Below, piece after piece: positions 3,725 through 51,163 of a stretch of 64,000 nt of DNA. The notes beneath the pieces were generated by a model, which saw only the letters and a program-made list of their open reading frames with translations, made no database searches and was not told the DNA's origin. Both the position numbers and the translations under genes were made by a program. This stretch comes from a virus (lineage: Duplodnaviria; Heunggongvirae; Uroviricota; Caudoviricetes), in the IMG/VR virus record IMGVR_UViG_3300031999_007842, positions 53,708-117,707 of that record; one strand, 5' to 3'. Within the stretch, counting starts at the first letter, position 1. Each line of letters begins with the position of its first letter.

Positions 3725-3994
3725 AATCTACTGTTGTCAGACAGATGAGATTAGATACTGTGAAGAGATAATCTGTTGCAGGTTCTGTCAGAAGTATAAC
3801 AAGATCATTACTGAAGGCACTCGTCAGGATGGTTCAAAATATAAAGTCTCTGCCTGCTACTTTGGATGCCCACAAGCTTGGAAGAAACGATGCAAGCACA
3901 AGGGAAGAAAGGGGAAGGCTGAGACAGCTAAGCTGATGAGGAAGATGACTTTGAAACCACCTAGAGCAATTCTCTCAACAACACTCTATTGATA

Positions 3995-14398: not shown

Positions 14399-14694
14399 GA
14401 ACAAAAGAGATGTGGGAAGAAATACTCTTTCCCATGAGATTAAAGTCTGGCAAGATGCTTTTCCGCTATATGAAGCATGAAGGAGACTTAACCCATCAGT
14501 ATCTTGCAGAGTATAACTTCGAGACGAAGAAGTGGCTAGTTGCAGTCTTCGAATATAAGATGGGGAAAATGCGTTGGGATAAAAGGAGAGGAGACAAGAG
14601 AATGCGACACATGATAATCCAGAAAGCTATCAGATTTCTTGAGAGGGAAATGAAACAGATAAGGAGAGAAGAAATTGTCGAGAGAACTACTTAA
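14392..14694 (+). CDS. W-x-E-I-L family protein (MWEEILFPMRLKSGKMLF)
   Basis: motif near N-terminus. Confidence 0.4.
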   Translation: MLRTKEMWEEILFPMRLKSGKMLFRYMKHEGDLTHQYLAEYNFETKKWLVAVFEYKMGKMRWDKRRGDKRMRHMIIQKAIRFLEREMKQIRREEIVERTT

Positions 14695-15271
14695 AAGAGG
14701 GAATCATAAACTATCAAGCAAGCAAGGCGTGTGGACACTTCCACGTTCAACTTGTATAGGTGCTGGAATCTGTGCGAAGTTCTGCTATGCTAAGAAGATG
14801 GAGAACATGCCTAATGTCAGAATCTCAAGAGCATGGAAACTTGAGCAAACAAAAGGTTCAGACTTCAAGAGTAGGATAATAGCAGAGATACGAAAGAGGA
14901 AGTTCAAGGTTATCCGTATACATGAAAGTGGGGACTATTATTGTCAAGCCTATGTGGACACATGGAAAGACATAGCACGTTCAATTCCAGAGATAACTTT
15001 CTATTCTTTCACCAAAGCCTTTCAGTTAGACCTGTGGAGTAACCTTCCTTCCAACTTCATAATCATACAGAGCTATGGTTCGAAGTTCGATGAGAAGATA
15101 GACTCTACTAAAAGCACAGGCAGGGTAATTGAGAAATTAACTGACCTTAGAATTACTGATTACCTCTGTCCGTACTATCACCATGTGGAAGGATTTAAGT
15201 GCGGCAAGGATTGTTCTTACTGCTTTTCACAAGAGCCAAAAGTGAAACAAGTAGCATTTATCATGCACTAA
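14675..15271 (+). CDS. possible phage Gp37/Gp68-family protein
   Basis: VWTLPRSTCIGAGICAKFCYA resembles the W..C..GC..CYA signature of that family (from memory). Confidence 0.4.
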   Translation: MSRELLKRGNHKLSSKQGVWTLPRSTCIGAGICAKFCYAKKMENMPNVRISRAWKLEQTKGSDFKSRIIAEIRKRKFKVIRIHESGDYYCQAYVDTWKDIARSIPEITFYSFTKAFQLDLWSNLPSNFIIIQSYGSKFDEKIDSTKSTGRVIEKLTDLRITDYLCPYYHHVEGFKCGKDCSYCFSQEPKVKQVAFIMH

Positions 15272-45848: not shown

Positions 45849-45992
45849 GCGGAGGTGGCTGAGTCAGGTTTAAAGCGCCAGACTGCTAACAGGGGCGAAA
45901 CTTGAAACAGGGTGATACTGGAATCGAATCATTAACCTGACAGATATCTGGTGGGCTTGCCCGCGAAGGTTCAAATCCTTCCCTCCGCGCCA
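45849..45992 (+). tRNA. tRNA-Ser(GCT), 57-nt intron at 37/38 (45889..45945), CCA encoded
   Basis: acceptor GCGGAGG/CCTCCGC, D-arm, anticodon stem CCAGA/TCTGG, loop CUGCUA|A, long variable arm, T-arm GAAGG-TTCAAAT-CCTTC, GCCA end. Confidence 0.7.
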
Positions 45993-46004
45993 GTTACAAG
46001 GAAT

Positions 46005-46160
46005 GCAGGGGTAGCTAAGTCAGGCCGAAAGCGCCGGGCTTAAGCGTCTTTCAAAGACCTTGAGGGCGTAGCTAAGAGGCGTTAAGCTCAAAGGCTTGAC
46101 ACTGAGACACCCGGTCACATAGGTGAAACATCGCCGGTTCGAATCCGGCCCCCTGCACCA
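46005..46160 (+). tRNA. tRNA-Leu(TAA), 64-nt intron at 37/38 (46045..46108), CCA encoded
   Basis: acceptor GCAGGGG/CCCCTGC, anticodon stem CCGGG/CCCGG, loop CUUAAG, variable hairpin TCAC-ATAG-GTGA, T-arm GCCGG-TTCGAAT-CCGGC; intron repeats exon segment GTAGCTAAG. Confidence 0.7.
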
Positions 46161-46167
46161 GTAACAT

Positions 46168-46241
46168 GCCGATGTAGCCTAACTAGGAAAGGCAGTGGCT
46201 TTGTAAGCCACCTCATAGGAGTTCAACTCTCCTCATCGGCT
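46168..46241 (+). tRNA. tRNA-Thr(TGT), intronless, no CCA
   Basis: full cloverleaf: GCCGATG/CATCGGC, GTGGC-TTTGTAA-GCCAC, AGGAG-TTCAACT-CTCCT. Confidence 0.7.
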
Positions 46242-46244
46242 TTT

Positions 46245-46317
46245 GGATCTATAGCATAACAAGGCAGTGCAGTGGACCTTTAATCCACATATCCGAGTTC
46301 AAATCTCGGTAGATCCA
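46245..46317 (+). tRNA. tRNA-Lys(TTT), intronless, no CCA; unusual C at position 33
   Basis: GGATCTA/TAGATCC, GTGGA-CCTTTAA-TCCAC, CCGAG-TTCAAAT-CTCGG. Confidence 0.55.
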
Positions 46318-46320
46318 TTC

Positions 46321-46394
46321 GGACCATTAGCTTAACCAGGTAGAGCGGTAGACCCTTAATCTACTAATTGCGGGTTCAAATCCCGCATGGTCCT
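46321..46394 (+). tRNA. tRNA-Lys(CTT), intronless, no CCA; C at position 33
   Basis: GGACCAT/ATGGTCC, GTAGA-CCCTTAA-TCTAC, GCGGG-TTCAAAT-CCCGC. Confidence 0.55.
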
Positions 46395-46399
46395 TCAGT

Positions 46400-46471
46400 G
46401 GCTTGAGTAGTGTAGTAGCAGCACAGTGGTCTGTGGAGCCACGAGCAAGAGTGCAATCCTCTTCTCAAGCC
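46400..46471 (+). tRNA. tRNA-His(GTG) with G-1, intronless, no CCA
   Basis: extra 5' G pairing with discriminator C; GTGGT-CTGTGGA-GCCAC; T-loop TGCAATC (non-canonical position 55). Confidence 0.6.
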
Positions 46472-46478
46472 CTCATAT

Positions 46479-46552
46479 GCCTGAGTGGACAAGCCTGGAA
46501 AGTCAGTTGCCTGCAGAGCAACTAAGCGGGGGTTCAAATCCCCTCTCAGGCT
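46479..46552 (+). tRNA. tRNA-Cys(GCA), intronless, no CCA
   Basis: GCCTGAG/CTCAGGC, GTTGC-CTGCAGA-GCAAC, GGGGG-TTCAAAT-CCCCT. Confidence 0.6.
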
Positions 46553-46557
46553 TTCAA

Positions 46558-46977
46558 GCAGGTGTGATGTAATGGCAACATCCCAGCCTTCCAAAGTCAA
46601 ACAGAAGGGCTAATAGATCACCATCACTTGTATAAGTGGTGATAAAATGAAAACACCAGCACAAATCAATAAAGAATATAGACAAAGAGTAAGAGAAAAG
46701 GCAAATCAAGTCTTCGGGAAGAAATGTTTCTTCTGCGGACATGAAGTAGGAAGAATGCCTCTTCATAATAAGAAAGGAGAAAAGCATCCTACTGATTTGA
46801 CTGCAAGAGAAGCTTTGAAGAATCCTGAAGATTGGGTTCGTCTATGCAAACATTGCCATCGAGGAGTTCATTTCTCTATGAATATCCTTGAAATGGATTG
46901 GGAACAAATAGTTAAACTAGCAAAGAAAGTTTGACTGAGGAAAGCTGATTATCTGGGTTCAATTCCCAGCACCTGCA
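46558..46977 (+). tRNA. tRNA-Gly(TCC) interrupted by a 349-nt intron (46594..46942) that contains an HNH endonuclease ORF
   Basis: 5' exon GCAGGTG-TG-ATGT-AATGGCA-ACAT-C-CCAGC-CUUCCA; 3' exon A-GCTGA-TTAT-CTGGG-TTCAATT-CCCAG-CACCTGC-A. Confidence 0.55.
46647..46934 (+). CDS. HNH endonuclease encoded inside the tRNA-Gly intron
   Basis: CFFCGHE...LHNKKGEKH...CKHCHRGVH = CxxC...HN...CxxH HNH-like; ORF ends 8 nt before the 3' exon. Confidence 0.5.
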   Translation: MKTPAQINKEYRQRVREKANQVFGKKCFFCGHEVGRMPLHNKKGEKHPTDLTAREALKNPEDWVRLCKHCHRGVHFSMNILEMDWEQIVKLAKKV

Positions 46978-46983
46978 CTCATA

Positions 46984-47058
46984 GGGGTAGTGGTGTAGTT
47001 TGGTCAACATCCCTGGCTTGGAACCAGGTGAACGTCAGTTCGAGTCTGGCCTACCCCA
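46984..47058 (+). tRNA. tRNA-Pro(TGG), intronless, no CCA
   Basis: GGGGTAG/CTACCCC, CCTGG-CTTGGAA-CCAGG, GTCAG-TTCGAGT-CTGGC. Confidence 0.65.
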
Positions 47059-47073
47059 CTCATAGTCACGGTT

Positions 47074-47166
47074 TGGATAGGAGTTGTTGAGATGGGAACC
47101 GTGCACATCATAGCTTTACCTACTGAGGAAAAAGACTTTGCGACGGAACAACTAAGCTCCTATCCG
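47074..47166. other. long imperfect hairpin / tRNA-like remnant (14-bp stem GGATAGGAGTTGTT..AACAACTAAGCTCCTATCC)
   Basis: stem visible in sequence; no cloverleaf could be fitted. Confidence 0.3.
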
Positions 47167-47191
47167 TTAATTAAACTATCGAGGTTATAAC

Positions 47192-47328: not shown

Positions 47329-47607
47329 AGTAAGAGCGAATACCTATATATAGTCCAGTAAGTGAGAAGATGGCATACACAACTATGGCTTCACATCCGG
47401 ATGCGGGTTATTAGCCCGCAACCCAGAATCGGCTGGCAGTCGACTGGGAGGGTGAGGAGTCAGATGAGTGGGAAAGAAGAAGCATATCAAAGGAATAAAG
47501 GAACACACTACCTGCAGAAGGTGTCGTGTCCCGATAGTCTCTTGGAGTGCACTAGACCCAGTATGCATAAACTGTGCAATCTGGGGAGGACCCAAGAAAG
47601 ACTAAAT

Positions 47608-47626: not shown

Positions 47627-47778
47627 CTTCTCGTGGTGTAATAGCAGCATAATTGACTGTAAATAGTAGAGCGAAGGGAATTGACTAACCGATGAAAATA
47701 GCTGAGGGCTATGGACTACCTGTTCGTTCGAATAGCAGTTACCAATCGGACTTGGTGCAAATCCAAGCGGGAAGACCA
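47627..47778 (+). tRNA. tRNA-Tyr(GTA), 78-nt intron at 37/38 (47663..47740), CCA encoded
   Basis: CTTCTCG/CGGGAAG acceptor (one G-U), GTGT-AATAGCA-GCAT D-arm, ATTGA-CUGUAA|, T-arm CTTGG-TGCAAAT-CCAAG, ACCA end. Confidence 0.55.
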
Positions 47779-47784
47779 ATAATA

Positions 47785-47789
47785 GGTGA
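47785..47789 (+). promoter_or_regulatory. GGTGA RBS-like motif
   Basis: 6 nt upstream of ATG 47796. Confidence 0.35.
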
Positions 47790-47795
47790 ATCGTA

Positions 47796-48764
47796 ATGGA
47801 TAAGAAATTGCTCTATCTCAAGTCAGTAAACCATGATGTCATCACTGTCTATATTGCTAAGGGAAGTTCTGTCCAGAAGACATTGAACTTACTGAAAAGA
47901 GAAGAGCCAATCGTACAGAATATTAAATCAAGAGTGACTAGGCAAGCAATCGAGACAGCATTCCAGAAGATCAAAAGCTTCCTAGCTAGTCCTCCTCCTT
48001 CAGAGAATGGATACATCGTTGTAGCTTCAGCCACTGACTTTGCTTGGACAGTAGAGTTCCTAATAGAGGAAGACTTCTATCGTTGTGGTAATGAATTCTA
48101 TTCTACACTTCTTGAAGAGATCCTATTACTCAAACTTTATCCAATAGGGATAATAACAATAGATACTAAGGAAGCCACGTTAGGTCACATAGGTTCCACG
48201 ATCCAGATTCTCAAGTACATGACTTCAGGAATACCAGGGAAGAGTCACAAAGGAGGACAATCTCAACGAAGGTATGAACGTGAAAGAGACATGGCAGTTG
48301 CAGCTTTCTTCAAACGAGTAGGAGATGCTGCTAAACTCTTTGTGGAGAACTATCCCATAGAAGAACTATTGATCTCTGGATGTGGGCAGACAAAGGATGA
48401 CTTCCTAAAGGCAAAGTACTTAGACTACCGCCTCAAAGCGAAGGTCACTGAAGTCATTGATACCCAATACACTGGTGAGCACGGAATCAGGGAAACCCTG
48501 CACAAAGCACTACCCCTTCTACAGAAGAATGCTTATGCAAGGGAGGTCCAGGTCGTTGAAAGGGTGTTTGAAATGCTGGGTAAGAACTTTGAGGCAGTAG
48601 TCTATGGACAAGATGAGATCAAGAGGCAGATTCATTCAATCAAGAAGATTATCAAGATAGAAGAGATCAAGGAAGAATATCAGAAGGAAACAGTTATCTT
48701 GCACTTTCACGGGGAACATTATGAGAAGATTAAGTCCTTGGGAGGAATAGTCGGAACCAAATAA
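47796..48764 (+). CDS. class-I peptide chain release factor, aRF1/eRF1-like, C-terminally truncated (322 aa)
   Basis: domain-1 NIKS motif (IVQNIKSRV) and YxCxxxF (YRCGNEF), domain-2 GGQ motif (HKGGQSQRRYER); by eye about 75 aa of domain-3-like sequence follows before the ORF ends. Confidence 0.7.
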   Translation: MDKKLLYLKSVNHDVITVYIAKGSSVQKTLNLLKREEPIVQNIKSRVTRQAIETAFQKIKSFLASPPPSENGYIVVASATDFAWTVEFLIEEDFYRCGNEFYSTLLEEILLLKLYPIGIITIDTKEATLGHIGSTIQILKYMTSGIPGKSHKGGQSQRRYERERDMAVAAFFKRVGDAAKLFVENYPIEELLISGCGQTKDDFLKAKYLDYRLKAKVTEVIDTQYTGEHGIRETLHKALPLLQKNAYAREVQVVERVFEMLGKNFEAVVYGQDEIKRQIHSIKKIIKIEEIKEEYQKETVILHFHGEHYEKIKSLGGIVGTK

Positions 48765-48925
48765 GGTCTGTCGGTCAGTTGGAACTGATCCCTGCCTGTC
48801 AATCTAAGAGCTCTCAAAAATGAGAGTGGGGTGGTGGACGAGGCGGCCCAGACTGGAAAATCTCCAAACTATACTCTTAGAACAGAACGTAGGGGAAGCG
48901 GGTCCGATTCCCGCACAGACCGCCA
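48765..48925 (+). tRNA. tRNA-Asp(GTC), about 86-nt intron at 37/38 (48802..48887), CCA encoded
   Basis: GGTCTGT/ACAGACC, GTCA-GTTGGAAC-TGAT, CCTGC-CUGUCA|...GTAGG, T-arm GCGGG-TCCGATT-CCCGC, GCCA end; starts 1 nt after aRF1 stop. Confidence 0.55.
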
Positions 48926-49529: not shown

Positions 49530-50069
49530 TTGGAAACAAAGAAGGAAGAAAAAGGAAAGATCATAATGGTTGATAGAAAAGAAATTGTCCAAAAATATAT
49601 TGATGAATGCCGATCACTTTCTGCTCTTGGAAGAGAATATCATATTTCCCGTTTCAAAGTGAGAGATATTCTCGAGGAAGCTAATATTCCAATAAGGATT
49701 CGGGGATATAGACCAAGAACTTTGAGAATTCCTACTGATGCGCGGAAATTAGCTTACATCGCTGGGATTGTCGATGGAGAAGGAACAATAAGTTATACAC
49801 ATATAAAGAATGGATTCAGAGAGAAGGCTCCCTTCATTGCCATAAAGAATACAGATAAGAATCTAATTGATTGGTTAGTCAAAACTCTAGGAGGAAATGT
49901 GAGCGAAGGAAAGGTCAGGAAAGGTTGGAAGACTCCTTATAGATGGTACAAGTACTCGACGTTGGATGTCTATGATCTTGTGAGTGTCCTGAGACCTTAC
50001 CTAATAATTAAGAAAGAAAATGCAGATCTGGTTCTTAAGATCTGCAAAGAAAGGATGGGAAAGATTTGA
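49530..50069 (+). CDS. LAGLIDADG-family homing endonuclease-like protein with N-terminal HTH
   Basis: LAYIAGIVDGEGTIS = LAG(L/I)(I/V)DG(D/E)G motif. Confidence 0.55.
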   Translation: METKKEEKGKIIMVDRKEIVQKYIDECRSLSALGREYHISRFKVRDILEEANIPIRIRGYRPRTLRIPTDARKLAYIAGIVDGEGTISYTHIKNGFREKAPFIAIKNTDKNLIDWLVKTLGGNVSEGKVRKGWKTPYRWYKYSTLDVYDLVSVLRPYLIIKKENADLVLKICKERMGKI

Positions 50070-51163
50070 ACGCTCTCTCCAAGCATTTAGAAACTTGGTG
50101 GCTATTAAGAATTTCAGATTTCAAAGCAGGAAAAGCTCTTTCACCTATTACCTTGAGAGGTCTTTTCTATCTTATGCGATTGAAGGTAGGACAGAAGAAA
50201 ATGCCTAAGAAAGGAGGATTCTATGCAATCATAAAAAGAATAGAAGCAGAAAAGAAAGTAAATCGAGAAAAGCTTGGACTTGTCTCAGAACCAAAAGTCA
50301 ATATCATTTCTCGATGGGGTGAAGAGCCTCTTCTCAAGGCTGATTTGAACAAACTGAAAGGAGCCTTGGCATTTCTTTACATTGAGAAAAGTACTATAGT
50401 AGAAGCGATAGAACAAGATAAAAGCCTCACAGATAGAGGAATTGTCATAATTAAAGGAATGGGATTTGCTCCTAGGGAAATAAACAGAGTCTTGAAGAAG
50501 GCTCAAGAATTGGGAATTCCTATTTTCACACTCACAGACTTTGATGCATCAGGGATCTTAATAGATTTGAAGATCCAGCAATCTGGAGTCTCTACGACTA
50601 GATTGGGTATAGATCCAGATCTAGTAAAAACACTTGGTCTTAAAGTCTCAGATGTTCGAGAAGCTCTTCCCAGAGGCAAGGGTAAACTTGGCCATTTCAA
50701 ATACCTTCAAACCAATTATCCAAAACTAGCTAAAGGATTTCTAGATATTGGAGTAGGAGGACAGCCATATCGCATAGAGATAGATGGTGTCTTTGCATTG
50801 GCTGGAAAGGACAGGTTCATTGAGGAGATACTCAAACGTGCAGACTTAGCAGTTCCAGTCAAACCTGTCAAGAAGGCTTTGAACTATAAGAAAATACCCA
50901 AGAAGGTGGAAGGGATGAGAAGCACGGTTCATGATCTTGTAGACAATATGTTTACCAAGACTGCCATAGGTGCAGAGCAAGGACTCATAAAGAACAATGA
51001 GTCATTTAACAAGATACGCCTGAGTGAAATAGAGAAGAATATTGAAGACAAGATAGAGAAAAAGGGTGAAGAAGTTCCTACCACTCAAGTCTTGGAAGAG
51101 ACAATCAAAGCATTGCAAAAACTTCTGGCAGAACAAAAAGCCAAGGAGAAGAAGAAACCATGA
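50066..51163 (+). CDS. Spo11/topoisomerase VI subunit A-like protein, stand-alone (mini-A-like)
   Basis: ITLRGLFYLMRL (R-x-hFY catalytic-Tyr motif of the winged helix); Toprim-like IEKSTIVEAIE ... GIVIIKGMGFAPRE ... PIFTLTDFDASGILI (E...DxD...G). Confidence 0.5.
   Translation: MNALSKHLETWWLLRISDFKAGKALSPITLRGLFYLMRLKVGQKKMPKKGGFYAIIKRIEAEKKVNREKLGLVSEPKVNIISRWGEEPLLKADLNKLKGALAFLYIEKSTIVEAIEQDKSLTDRGIVIIKGMGFAPREINRVLKKAQELGIPIFTLTDFDASGILIDLKIQQSGVSTTRLGIDPDLVKTLGLKVSDVREALPRGKGKLGHFKYLQTNYPKLAKGFLDIGVGGQPYRIEIDGVFALAGKDRFIEEILKRADLAVPVKPVKKALNYKKIPKKVEGMRSTVHDLVDNMFTKTAIGAEQGLIKNNESFNKIRLSEIEKNIEDKIEKKGEEVPTTQVLEETIKALQKLLAEQKAKEKKKP

Follow-up and report, generated by a model that had tools for sequence, protein, structure and literature searches.

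Translation termination factors encoded by viruses are known from giant eukaryotic viruses (Mimiviridae, including the klosneuviruses, and Orpheovirus), which carry the class-I release factor eRF1 along with tRNAs and other translation genes. They are also known from Lak megaphages and huge phages, in which RF1 or RF2, members of a bacterial protein family unrelated to aRF1/eRF1, go together with suppressor tRNAs and recoding. For archaeal viruses, a 2021 survey of tailed viruses recorded tRNAs, RNA ligases, RtcB, LysRS, Trm112 and L21e and no release factor (PMC8651126), and a 2023 paper on the Bathyarchaeia virome added only bL19 (PMC10541130). Here a 64,000-nucleotide (nt) stretch of the IMG/VR record IMGVR_UViG_3300031999_007842 was analyzed (the window; all coordinates are window positions unless a contig is named). 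An open reading frame (ORF) on the + strand at 47796-48764 encodes a compact aRF1-like class-I release factor of 322 amino acids (aa), and the gene lies inside a tRNA island on a large virus-like element.

The gene runs from an ATG to a TAA at 48762-48764, with a Shine-Dalgarno-like AGGTGA on the same strand at 47784-47789, 6 nt upstream of the ATG. Three domains were assigned along the product. Domain 1 (residues 1-112, 47796-48131), placed by alignments that included HMMER against human eRF1 and the aRF1 structure 4AF1, is the stop-codon decoding domain. It contains NIKS at residues 42-45 (47919-47930), the YxCxxxF motif as YRCGNEF at residues 95-101 (48078-48098), and E36 as the equivalent of E55. 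Domain 2 (residues 113-245, 48132-48530) contains KGGQSQRRYER at residues 152-162, with the GGQ at 153-155 (48252-48260). Domain 3 (residues 246-322, 48531-48761) is minimal and ends in LGGIVGTK. The top profile match was NCBIfam TIGR03676, the aRF1 model (E 4e-61, 206.9 bits, residues 11-312 on model positions 18-331 of 403), and Pfam eRF1_2 passed its cut-off over residues 117-243 (E 1e-28, 100.5 bits against 27.1). A family profile searched against the PDB matched aRF1 most strongly (3AGK at 3e-50, 4AF1 at 1e-41), with eukaryotic eRF1 at about 1e-32. A Foldseek search with the AlphaFold2 model likewise placed aRF1 4AF1 and 3AGK at the top (about 1e-22), with 394 of the 410 columns of 4AF1 aligned. 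An earlier annotation made from the letters of this DNA alone, hereafter the sequence-only reading, had proposed the three eRF1-type motifs and membership in the aRF1/eRF1 family, and both proposals agree with these searches. By sequence and predicted fold, far beyond chance, the ORF encodes an aRF1/eRF1-family release factor. The related factors aPelota/Dom34, baeRF and VLRF1 have the fold of the central and C-terminal domains in common with it. To our knowledge, Pelota/Dom34 lacks NIKS, YxCxxxF and GGQ, and baeRF and VLRF1 lack stop-decoding motifs. An identity as aPelota/Dom34 was rejected, as the protein has both GGQ and NIKS and scores 44.1 bits on TIGR00111 against a cut-off of 177.65.

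The sequence-only reading had further called the protein truncated in domain 3. The shortness of this domain (about 77 aa) was confirmed; its cause is internal deletion and not C-terminal truncation, with the C-terminal end retained. In a global MAFFT alignment the product pairs with cellular aRF1 from end to end, from the first beta strand (VITVYI/ISLYIP) to the last (LGGIVGTK/FGGIGAILRY), including the LGGxxG. The roughly 90 aa missing relative to cellular aRF1 correspond to an N-terminal helix (about 15 aa), two short loops of domain 1 and, in domain 3, a CxxC...CxxC zinc-ribbon insert and one helix. Crenarchaeal aRF1 proteins of 351-373 aa (P0091 of 351 aa, P0130 of 372 aa and A. pernix 3AGK) also lack the N-terminal helix, the insert or both, so that beyond them the further loss is essentially one helix. 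The AlphaFold2 model (mean predicted local distance difference test score, pLDDT, 88.4) shows the three-domain N-M-C architecture of eRF1, with a compact beta-alpha-beta-beta-alpha-beta domain C of four strands and two helices at residues 268-321 as assigned by DSSP. On the M and C domains of ribosome-bound Sulfolobus aRF1 (8hku) the model gave a target-normalised template modelling (TM) score of 0.71 over 225 columns. Because hhalign is local and ended before the gap in domain 3, the C-terminal equivalence rests on the MAFFT alignment, a weak second HMMER segment and the structure model.

A factor that had lost its C-terminal, aEF1alpha-binding part and terminated without the GTPase could be expected to show a domain 3 of only about 77 aa, and the hidden Markov model (HMM) alignments to aRF1 models do end at model position 331 of 403. 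We consider this explanation highly improbable, because both the global alignment and the model contain the C-terminal strand and helix, the cellular crenarchaeal proteins are little longer, and part of the domain B/C contacts to aEF1alpha are kept. In A. pernix aRF1, residues K290, L293, A294, W354, Y257, E149 and D151 were important for aEF1alpha binding, and aRF1 was reported to be active on mammalian ribosomes (PMC3467058). In the alignment the counterpart of Y257 is Y225, an invariant residue of the viral clade described below, that of L293/A294 is L261/G262 and that of E149 is D123, and W354 falls beside Y309. Loss of the EF1alpha-binding part is thus not supported by the aligned residues. 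The suggestion of domain-3-independent termination that had followed from the presumed truncation is without basis, because domain C is complete in the model and the aEF1alpha contacts are partly retained. Judged by alignment and predicted structure, the archaeal class-I release factor of this gene is complete, though minimised, and not truncated.

In form, the nearest cellular relative is the short crenarchaeal aRF1 (A. pernix 3AGK/3VMF and Sulfolobus 8HKU), and 3AGK is the best PDB sequence match. The three-domain fold, GGQ, NIKS (NIKL in A. pernix) and the absence of a zinc ribbon from domain C are common to both. The window protein differs in being only about 31% identical and 30-50 aa shorter, with one domain-C helix fewer and a replaced GTS loop. 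It also scores below the TIGR03676 cut-off, and the genes of its clade are carried on a mobile element and were not found in the cellular genomes searched.

Homologues of the protein form a discrete group. A word-indexed search returned 42 proteins of 313-339 aa and two fragments, 46-99% identical, after which identity stepped down to cellular aRF1 proteins of about 412 aa at 38% or less. The same gap, from 412 to 215 bits, was seen in a search over all 1.84 billion representatives. An identical protein was found on two independent assemblies, one of them a 171,794-bp contig (ENA ERZ27247977, k141_5059899) that contains the window, and the members on long contigs are all on contigs of 114-172 kb. 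A search of GTDB, with one genome for each of 185,579 bacterial and archaeal species, gave 412 confirmed matches, all of them ordinary cellular aRF1 of at most 37% identity, and no clade member. A profile scan of IMG/VR found one clade member, on a 121.5-kb viral contig; a scan with the single sequence had given no match. The sequence-only reading had asked whether the gene branches within a host aRF1 clade or is deeply divergent. In a neighbor-joining tree a long stem leads to a monophyletic group of all 41 viral tips, which is equally distant from every archaeal group, and the tree thus points to no host lineage. Identity of the clade to cellular aRF1 is 31% overall, with 26% in domain 1, 42-45% in domain 2 and 22-25% in domain 3.

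The window is derived from a metagenome assembly, so that an artefact, a pseudogene or a misbinned cellular aRF1 had to be weighed. This is hardly credible in view of the identical gene in two independent assemblies, some 42 homologues of the same length, conserved synteny and the absence of any member from the GTDB species genomes. The ratio of nonsynonymous to synonymous substitution rates (dN/dS), 0.15 against the 70%-identical copy at the related locus L089, also speaks against it and indicates that the clade is under purifying selection. An assembly frameshift, which the sequence-only reading had raised as a possible cause of the short domain 3, is no longer a concern, because about 42 independent assemblies give the same protein length.

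The motifs are conserved across the clade. YxCxxxF is present in all 42 members, E36, Y95, C97 and F101 are invariant, and NIKS is found in 39 (the rest being one NIQS, one NVKS and one N-terminal fragment). GGQ is present in 37 of the 42. One member of the clade, P0121 (731 aa; 51-2246 on L094/L095, a syntenic contig), carries a LAGLIDADG intein of about 410 aa exactly between the GGQ and the following S. Many longer cellular aRF1 matches are also split at profile position 155, which suggests that an intein site at the catalytic motif is widespread. Another short aRF1 of 324 aa (P0217, at 2039-3013 of contig L093), with NIKS, YRCDSRF, GGQ and the same kind of minimal domain 3, was also observed, as was a similar protein, P0229. 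Contig L093 is 7.6 kb long with 59% GC, and P0217 adjoins zeta-toxin/AAA, DNA methyltransferase and thioredoxin genes; it may represent an independent aRF1 borne by a mobile element.

At the level of sequence and model, then, the gene has the complete aRF1 fold and motifs, is under purifying selection, is confined to one group of large mobile elements and lies in a tRNA and RNA-metabolism island. Its role is graded lower. On balance, the protein is probably a working omnipotent release factor, delivered by the host aEF1alpha, within a virus-borne translation and RNA-repair island. It would be made during infection from a transcript shared with, and punctuated by, the tRNAs, and host aEF1alpha-GTP would load it onto host ribosomes. 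There it would recognize UAA, UAG and UGA and release the nascent chain. It would supplement or replace host aRF1, as the tRNAs of the element would supplement host tRNAs; synthesis of viral proteins would then continue when components of host translation run short, are shut off or come under attack.

Several observations weigh against this reading. On TIGR03676 the protein falls short of the equivalog cut-off (234.7 bits), although that family is still the best by far, and Pfam eRF1_1 (14.4 bits against 23.8) and eRF1_3 (18.8 against 25.8) are both sub-threshold. One helix of domain C is absent, and two of the aEF1alpha contacts are not conserved (K290 is F and D151 is K). In the alignment the GTS loop (G-T-x) is replaced by N-H-D here and by N-K-D in most relatives. 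The catalytic glutamine is missing from five of the 42 clade members, which have GGS (P0002, P0010 and P0011) or GGF (P0038 and P0039). As to the viral setting, a search through about 84 kb of the window's contig and 77 kb (1.7-79 kb) of the IMG/VR relative IMGVR_UViG_3300044799_000154 found no gene for a capsid, portal or terminase protein.

The GTS loop tunes discrimination between UAG and UGA in eRF1. At this position 4AF1 has T and human eRF1 has T32-S33, and the N-[H/K]-D that stands there throughout the viral clade, within a domain 1 that is deeply divergent (26% identity), could mark a specificity-shifted factor that reads stops unlike the host's and lets the virus impose its own termination rules, for example by restoring termination at a codon that is weakly read, or has become sense, in hosts that use pyrrolysine or selenocysteine. 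Archaea with strongly altered aRF1-like proteins do exist. A large set of such proteins of about 410-440 aa, mostly from Bathyarchaeia metagenome-assembled genomes, lacks both NIKS and YxCxxxF (P0043-P0120; loci including L025, L032, L034, L040, L047, L051, L053, L054, L069 and L085). These NIKS-less proteins often have GGS or GGE in place of GGQ, and other Bathyarchaeia genomes of this kind carry canonical aRF1. We nevertheless regard a specificity shift as unlikely, because the protein has kept NIKS, E36, Y95, C97 and F101, the element and its relatives fit the standard code best and end genes at each of the three stops, and the window contains no suppressor tRNA. It is similarly doubtful that the clade is a virus-specific termination factor, with a remodelled decoding loop and a minimal domain C that alter the manner of termination in infected cells or the codons at which it occurs. 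If this were true, full three-codon termination could, for example, be restored in hosts whose aRF1 has drifted or in which UAG or UGA is read as sense, and the system would be an archaeal counterpart of the phage-host code conflict.

Under the standard code 92% of the + strand of the window is coding, with 67 TGA, 49 TAA and 40 TAG stops, and reading any of the three as sense lowered coding density when ORFs were re-called for each stop codon. In seven related loci coding density was also best, or no worse, under the standard code. No stop-reading anticodon was found among the 11 tRNAs of the window. A release factor associated with recoding was rejected on these grounds (all three stops in use, the standard code fitting, no suppressor tRNA in the window). 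The sequence-only reading had reached the same view from the window, and the related loci extend it. In a relative, L001, a tRNA-like gene at 3868-3983 has an 8-bp acceptor stem and a 34-nt insert without a clean bulge-helix-bulge (BHB); ARAGORN labels it SeC(tca), and its anticodon would be UCA or UAA. The L001 locus still uses TGA as a stop.

The five members with GGS or GGF, together with the missing domain-C helix, raise the prospect of a competitor or inhibitor that holds ribosomes, aEF1alpha or ABCE1 unproductively and so shuts off or reprograms host translation through readthrough or stalling. This is very unlikely for the window protein, which, like 37 of the 42 members, keeps GGQ with the flanking SQRR(F/Y)ER. 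Viral translation would suffer as well, and the tRNA supply alongside points to support of translation and not to a block. As an observation on the five exceptions, the rest of their catalytic loop is conserved, and P0011 also has the NIQS variant.

The genes around the release factor bear on whether it serves routine termination, as favored here, or counter-defence. At L089 and on the window's contig the order RNA ligase, tRNA array, aRF1, Top6A-like Toprim protein, PD-(D/E)XK nuclease and ParB-like nuclease is conserved; the shorter L094 contig begins at the aRF1 gene and keeps the downstream genes as far as the nuclease. Across the clade, aRF1 usually goes together with an RNA ligase, 11-20 tRNAs in an array and the Toprim gene. 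The ATP-dependent RNA ligase (PF09414; 43769-45016, + strand) is conserved upstream of the tRNA array in relatives, and the Top6A/Spo11-like Toprim protein (50066-51163, + strand) is a conserved downstream neighbor of aRF1. More distant relatives carry aRF1 near topoisomerase IB, RlaP, a Pth2-like gene, Ro60/TROVE and RNA ligase, and 14-20 tRNAs lie within 10 kb in the relatives. The RNA ligase, large tRNA sets, Pth2-like protein, Ro60/TROVE, RlaP nucleotidyltransferase and metallophosphatase found between the window and its relatives would suit an RNA-repair and rescue module that clears ribosomes stalled by host defences cleaving tRNA or mRNA. Rescue factors of the superfamily, however, lack NIKS and YxCxxxF, both of which are near-invariant in the clade, and the Pelota model reaches only 44 bits against its cut-off of 177.65, so that rescue as the main function seems improbable.

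The sequence-only reading had placed the gene between tRNA-Tyr and tRNA-Asp, and both tRNAs proved to be real and to contain long introns. Default ARAGORN and Rfam, at gathering or E-value thresholds, reported neither because of these introns; they were recovered with intron-tolerant ARAGORN (-i -ps95, a 95% threshold) and in-silico splicing. The tRNA-Tyr(GUA) gene (47627-47778, + strand, CCA encoded) has a 78-nt intron at 47663-47740, at position 37/38, with a BHB-like fold as read by eye. The tRNA-Asp(GUC) gene (48765-48925, + strand, CCA encoded) has an 86-nt intron at 48802-48887 with a canonical BHB. The minimum-free-energy fold of its precursor is helix-bulge-helix-bulge-helix, with a CAA bulge, a CUGU:ACAG helix and an AAC bulge. 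Once spliced, it is identical at 66 of 75 positions to the intronless tRNA-Asp of L004 and at 63 of 75 to the tRNA-Asp of L089, which likewise lies downstream of aRF1. In the comparison with L004 the acceptor stem differs by compensatory changes, and the anticodon arm does not differ at all. An ARAGORN call of SeC(tca) at 48764-48924 was rejected as a misreading of this tRNA-Asp. The gene is homologous to the tRNA-Asp of relatives, and the SeC reading would require G33, a C-C mismatch and an A-G pair within an acceptor stem of 8 bp. The T-loops are non-canonical in both flanking tRNAs (UGCAAAU in tRNA-Tyr and UCCGAUU in tRNA-Asp). The CCA end of tRNA-Tyr lies 17 nt 5' of the aRF1 ATG, and tRNA-Asp begins at the base right after the TAA, a zero spacing that is not common to the relatives. 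Processing by RNase P and RNase Z would yield an aRF1 mRNA that ends at its stop codon.

Upstream on the + strand, at 45849-47059, an array encodes tRNA-Ser(GCU, with a 57-nt intron), Leu(UAA, with a 64-nt intron), Thr(UGU), Lys(UUU), Lys(CUU), His(GUG), Cys(GCA), Gly(UCC, with a 349-nt intron containing an ORF) and Pro(UGG). CCA is encoded on several of the window's tRNAs, and the BHB introns of the Ser, Leu, Tyr and Asp tRNAs are unusually long, at 57-86 nt. The Ser and Leu genes of the window with their introns (45849-46160) are identical to those of L089 (7514-7832) at 140 of 144 and 146 of 156 positions, whereas the aRF1 proteins are only 70% identical. An archaeal-type intron of 349 nt (46594-46942) splits the tRNA-Gly(UCC) gene (46558-46977) at position 37/38 and has a perfect BHB, CCAGC-CUUC-(CAA)-AGUCAAAC ... 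GUUUGACU-GAGG-(AAA)-GCUGA. The intron encodes a 95-aa HNH-like zinc-ribbon ORF at 46647-46934 (PHROG HNH endonuclease, 5.8e-5), and the exons are collinear with an intronless tRNA-Gly at the same position in L089 (8691-8762). From its sequence this may be a mobile, ORF-bearing BHB tRNA intron, of which we know of no prior description. An ARAGORN call of tRNA-Arg(gcg) at 46701-46978 was rejected as the 3' half of the split tRNA-Gly. In the intergenic stretches 47060-47191 and 47330-47467 no convincing structured RNA was found (z -1.4 and -2.1).

Nearly all of the window otherwise consists of small + strand ORFs without database matches. Shine-Dalgarno-like 4-mers precede 57 of the 104 ATG ORFs, against about 14 expected. 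Other recognizable genes include HNH and LAGLIDADG endonucleases, SPFH, MoxR/VWA and cupin proteins, and no rRNA or ribosomal protein gene was found in the window. A LAGLIDADG-type homing-endonuclease-like ORF of 179 aa with a weak Pfam match (49530-50069) sits just 3' of the aRF1/tRNA-Asp unit and directly 5' of the Toprim gene, with no counterpart there in L089. A GP88/"GTP-binding" match (14675-15268, 198 aa) was considered as a partner GTPase and rejected, being too small and unrelated to EF1alpha. The 10-kb extensions along the contig brought in topoisomerase IB, RNase H and a protein of ClpP type with a match to phage head-maturation protease families (7e-36); PHROG matches on the window's contig included HNH endonucleases and this ClpP-type head-maturation protease. 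The IMG/VR relative IMGVR_UViG_3300044799_000154 (L099-L101), of which 77 kb were walked, encodes, at about 50-79 kb, PolB, ribonucleotide reductase (both with PHROG matches) and a RadA/UvsX-like recombinase. The same region carries a block of eight GT1 glycosyltransferases together with nucleotide-sugar epimerase/dehydratase, aminotransferase and ATP-grasp genes, a glycosylation cluster such as giant viruses have. The archaeal affiliation is drawn from four features: a release factor of aRF1 type, tRNA introns with BHB, a Top6A-like gene and a hydrolase of Pth2 type. The carriers of the clade form a group of archaeal virus-like elements of 114-172 kb with a PolB of their own. As the sequence-only reading had supposed, the release factor is on a large, non-cellular, virus-like element; because the virion genes named above were not found in the stretches read, "large archaeal virus" is the likeliest label and not a proven one.

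Searches for precedents were in line with the earlier view that no aRF1 had been described on an archaeal virus. A tblastn search with aRF1, the MoxR-like ATPase and the RNA ligase against 50,697 GenBank records of phages and archaeal viruses (INPHARED) returned nothing. The only viral structural matches in BFVD were giant-virus eRF1 proteins, from Hyperionvirus, Catovirus, Yasminevirus, Orpheovirus, Bodo saltans virus and Moumouvirus. No report of an archaeal-virus release factor was found in the searchable literature, which is itself incomplete, so that this absence is no proof. The closest viral precedent is the eRF1 of giant eukaryotic viruses; both are virus-encoded class-I factors of the same superfamily. 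Those factors are eukaryote-type, whereas the window protein is archaeal-type (1e-41 to 1e-50 to aRF1 against about 1e-32 to eRF1), and its element, unlike giant eukaryotic viruses, has Shine-Dalgarno sites, archaeal BHB tRNA introns and some encoded CCA ends. The RF1/RF2 of huge phages are functional analogues, and the element shares with those phages the idea of carrying its own termination factor beside tRNAs, but it shows neither the suppressor tRNAs nor the recoding of such phages.

The finding belongs among the virus-encoded translation termination factors, as a variant. The surveys of archaeal viruses consulted have recorded no translation factor (PMC8651126, PMC10541130). With a conserved clade of release factors, under selection, on large archaeal virus-like elements, the theme of virus-encoded translation machinery would reach beyond giant eukaryotic viruses and huge phages into the archaeal virosphere. 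A naturally minimised aRF1 of 322 aa would show which parts of the factor are dispensable, namely the N-terminal helix, the zinc-ribbon insert and one helix of domain C, and may be convenient for structural and biochemical studies of termination in archaea. The gene may also serve as a marker for this uncharacterised group of elements.

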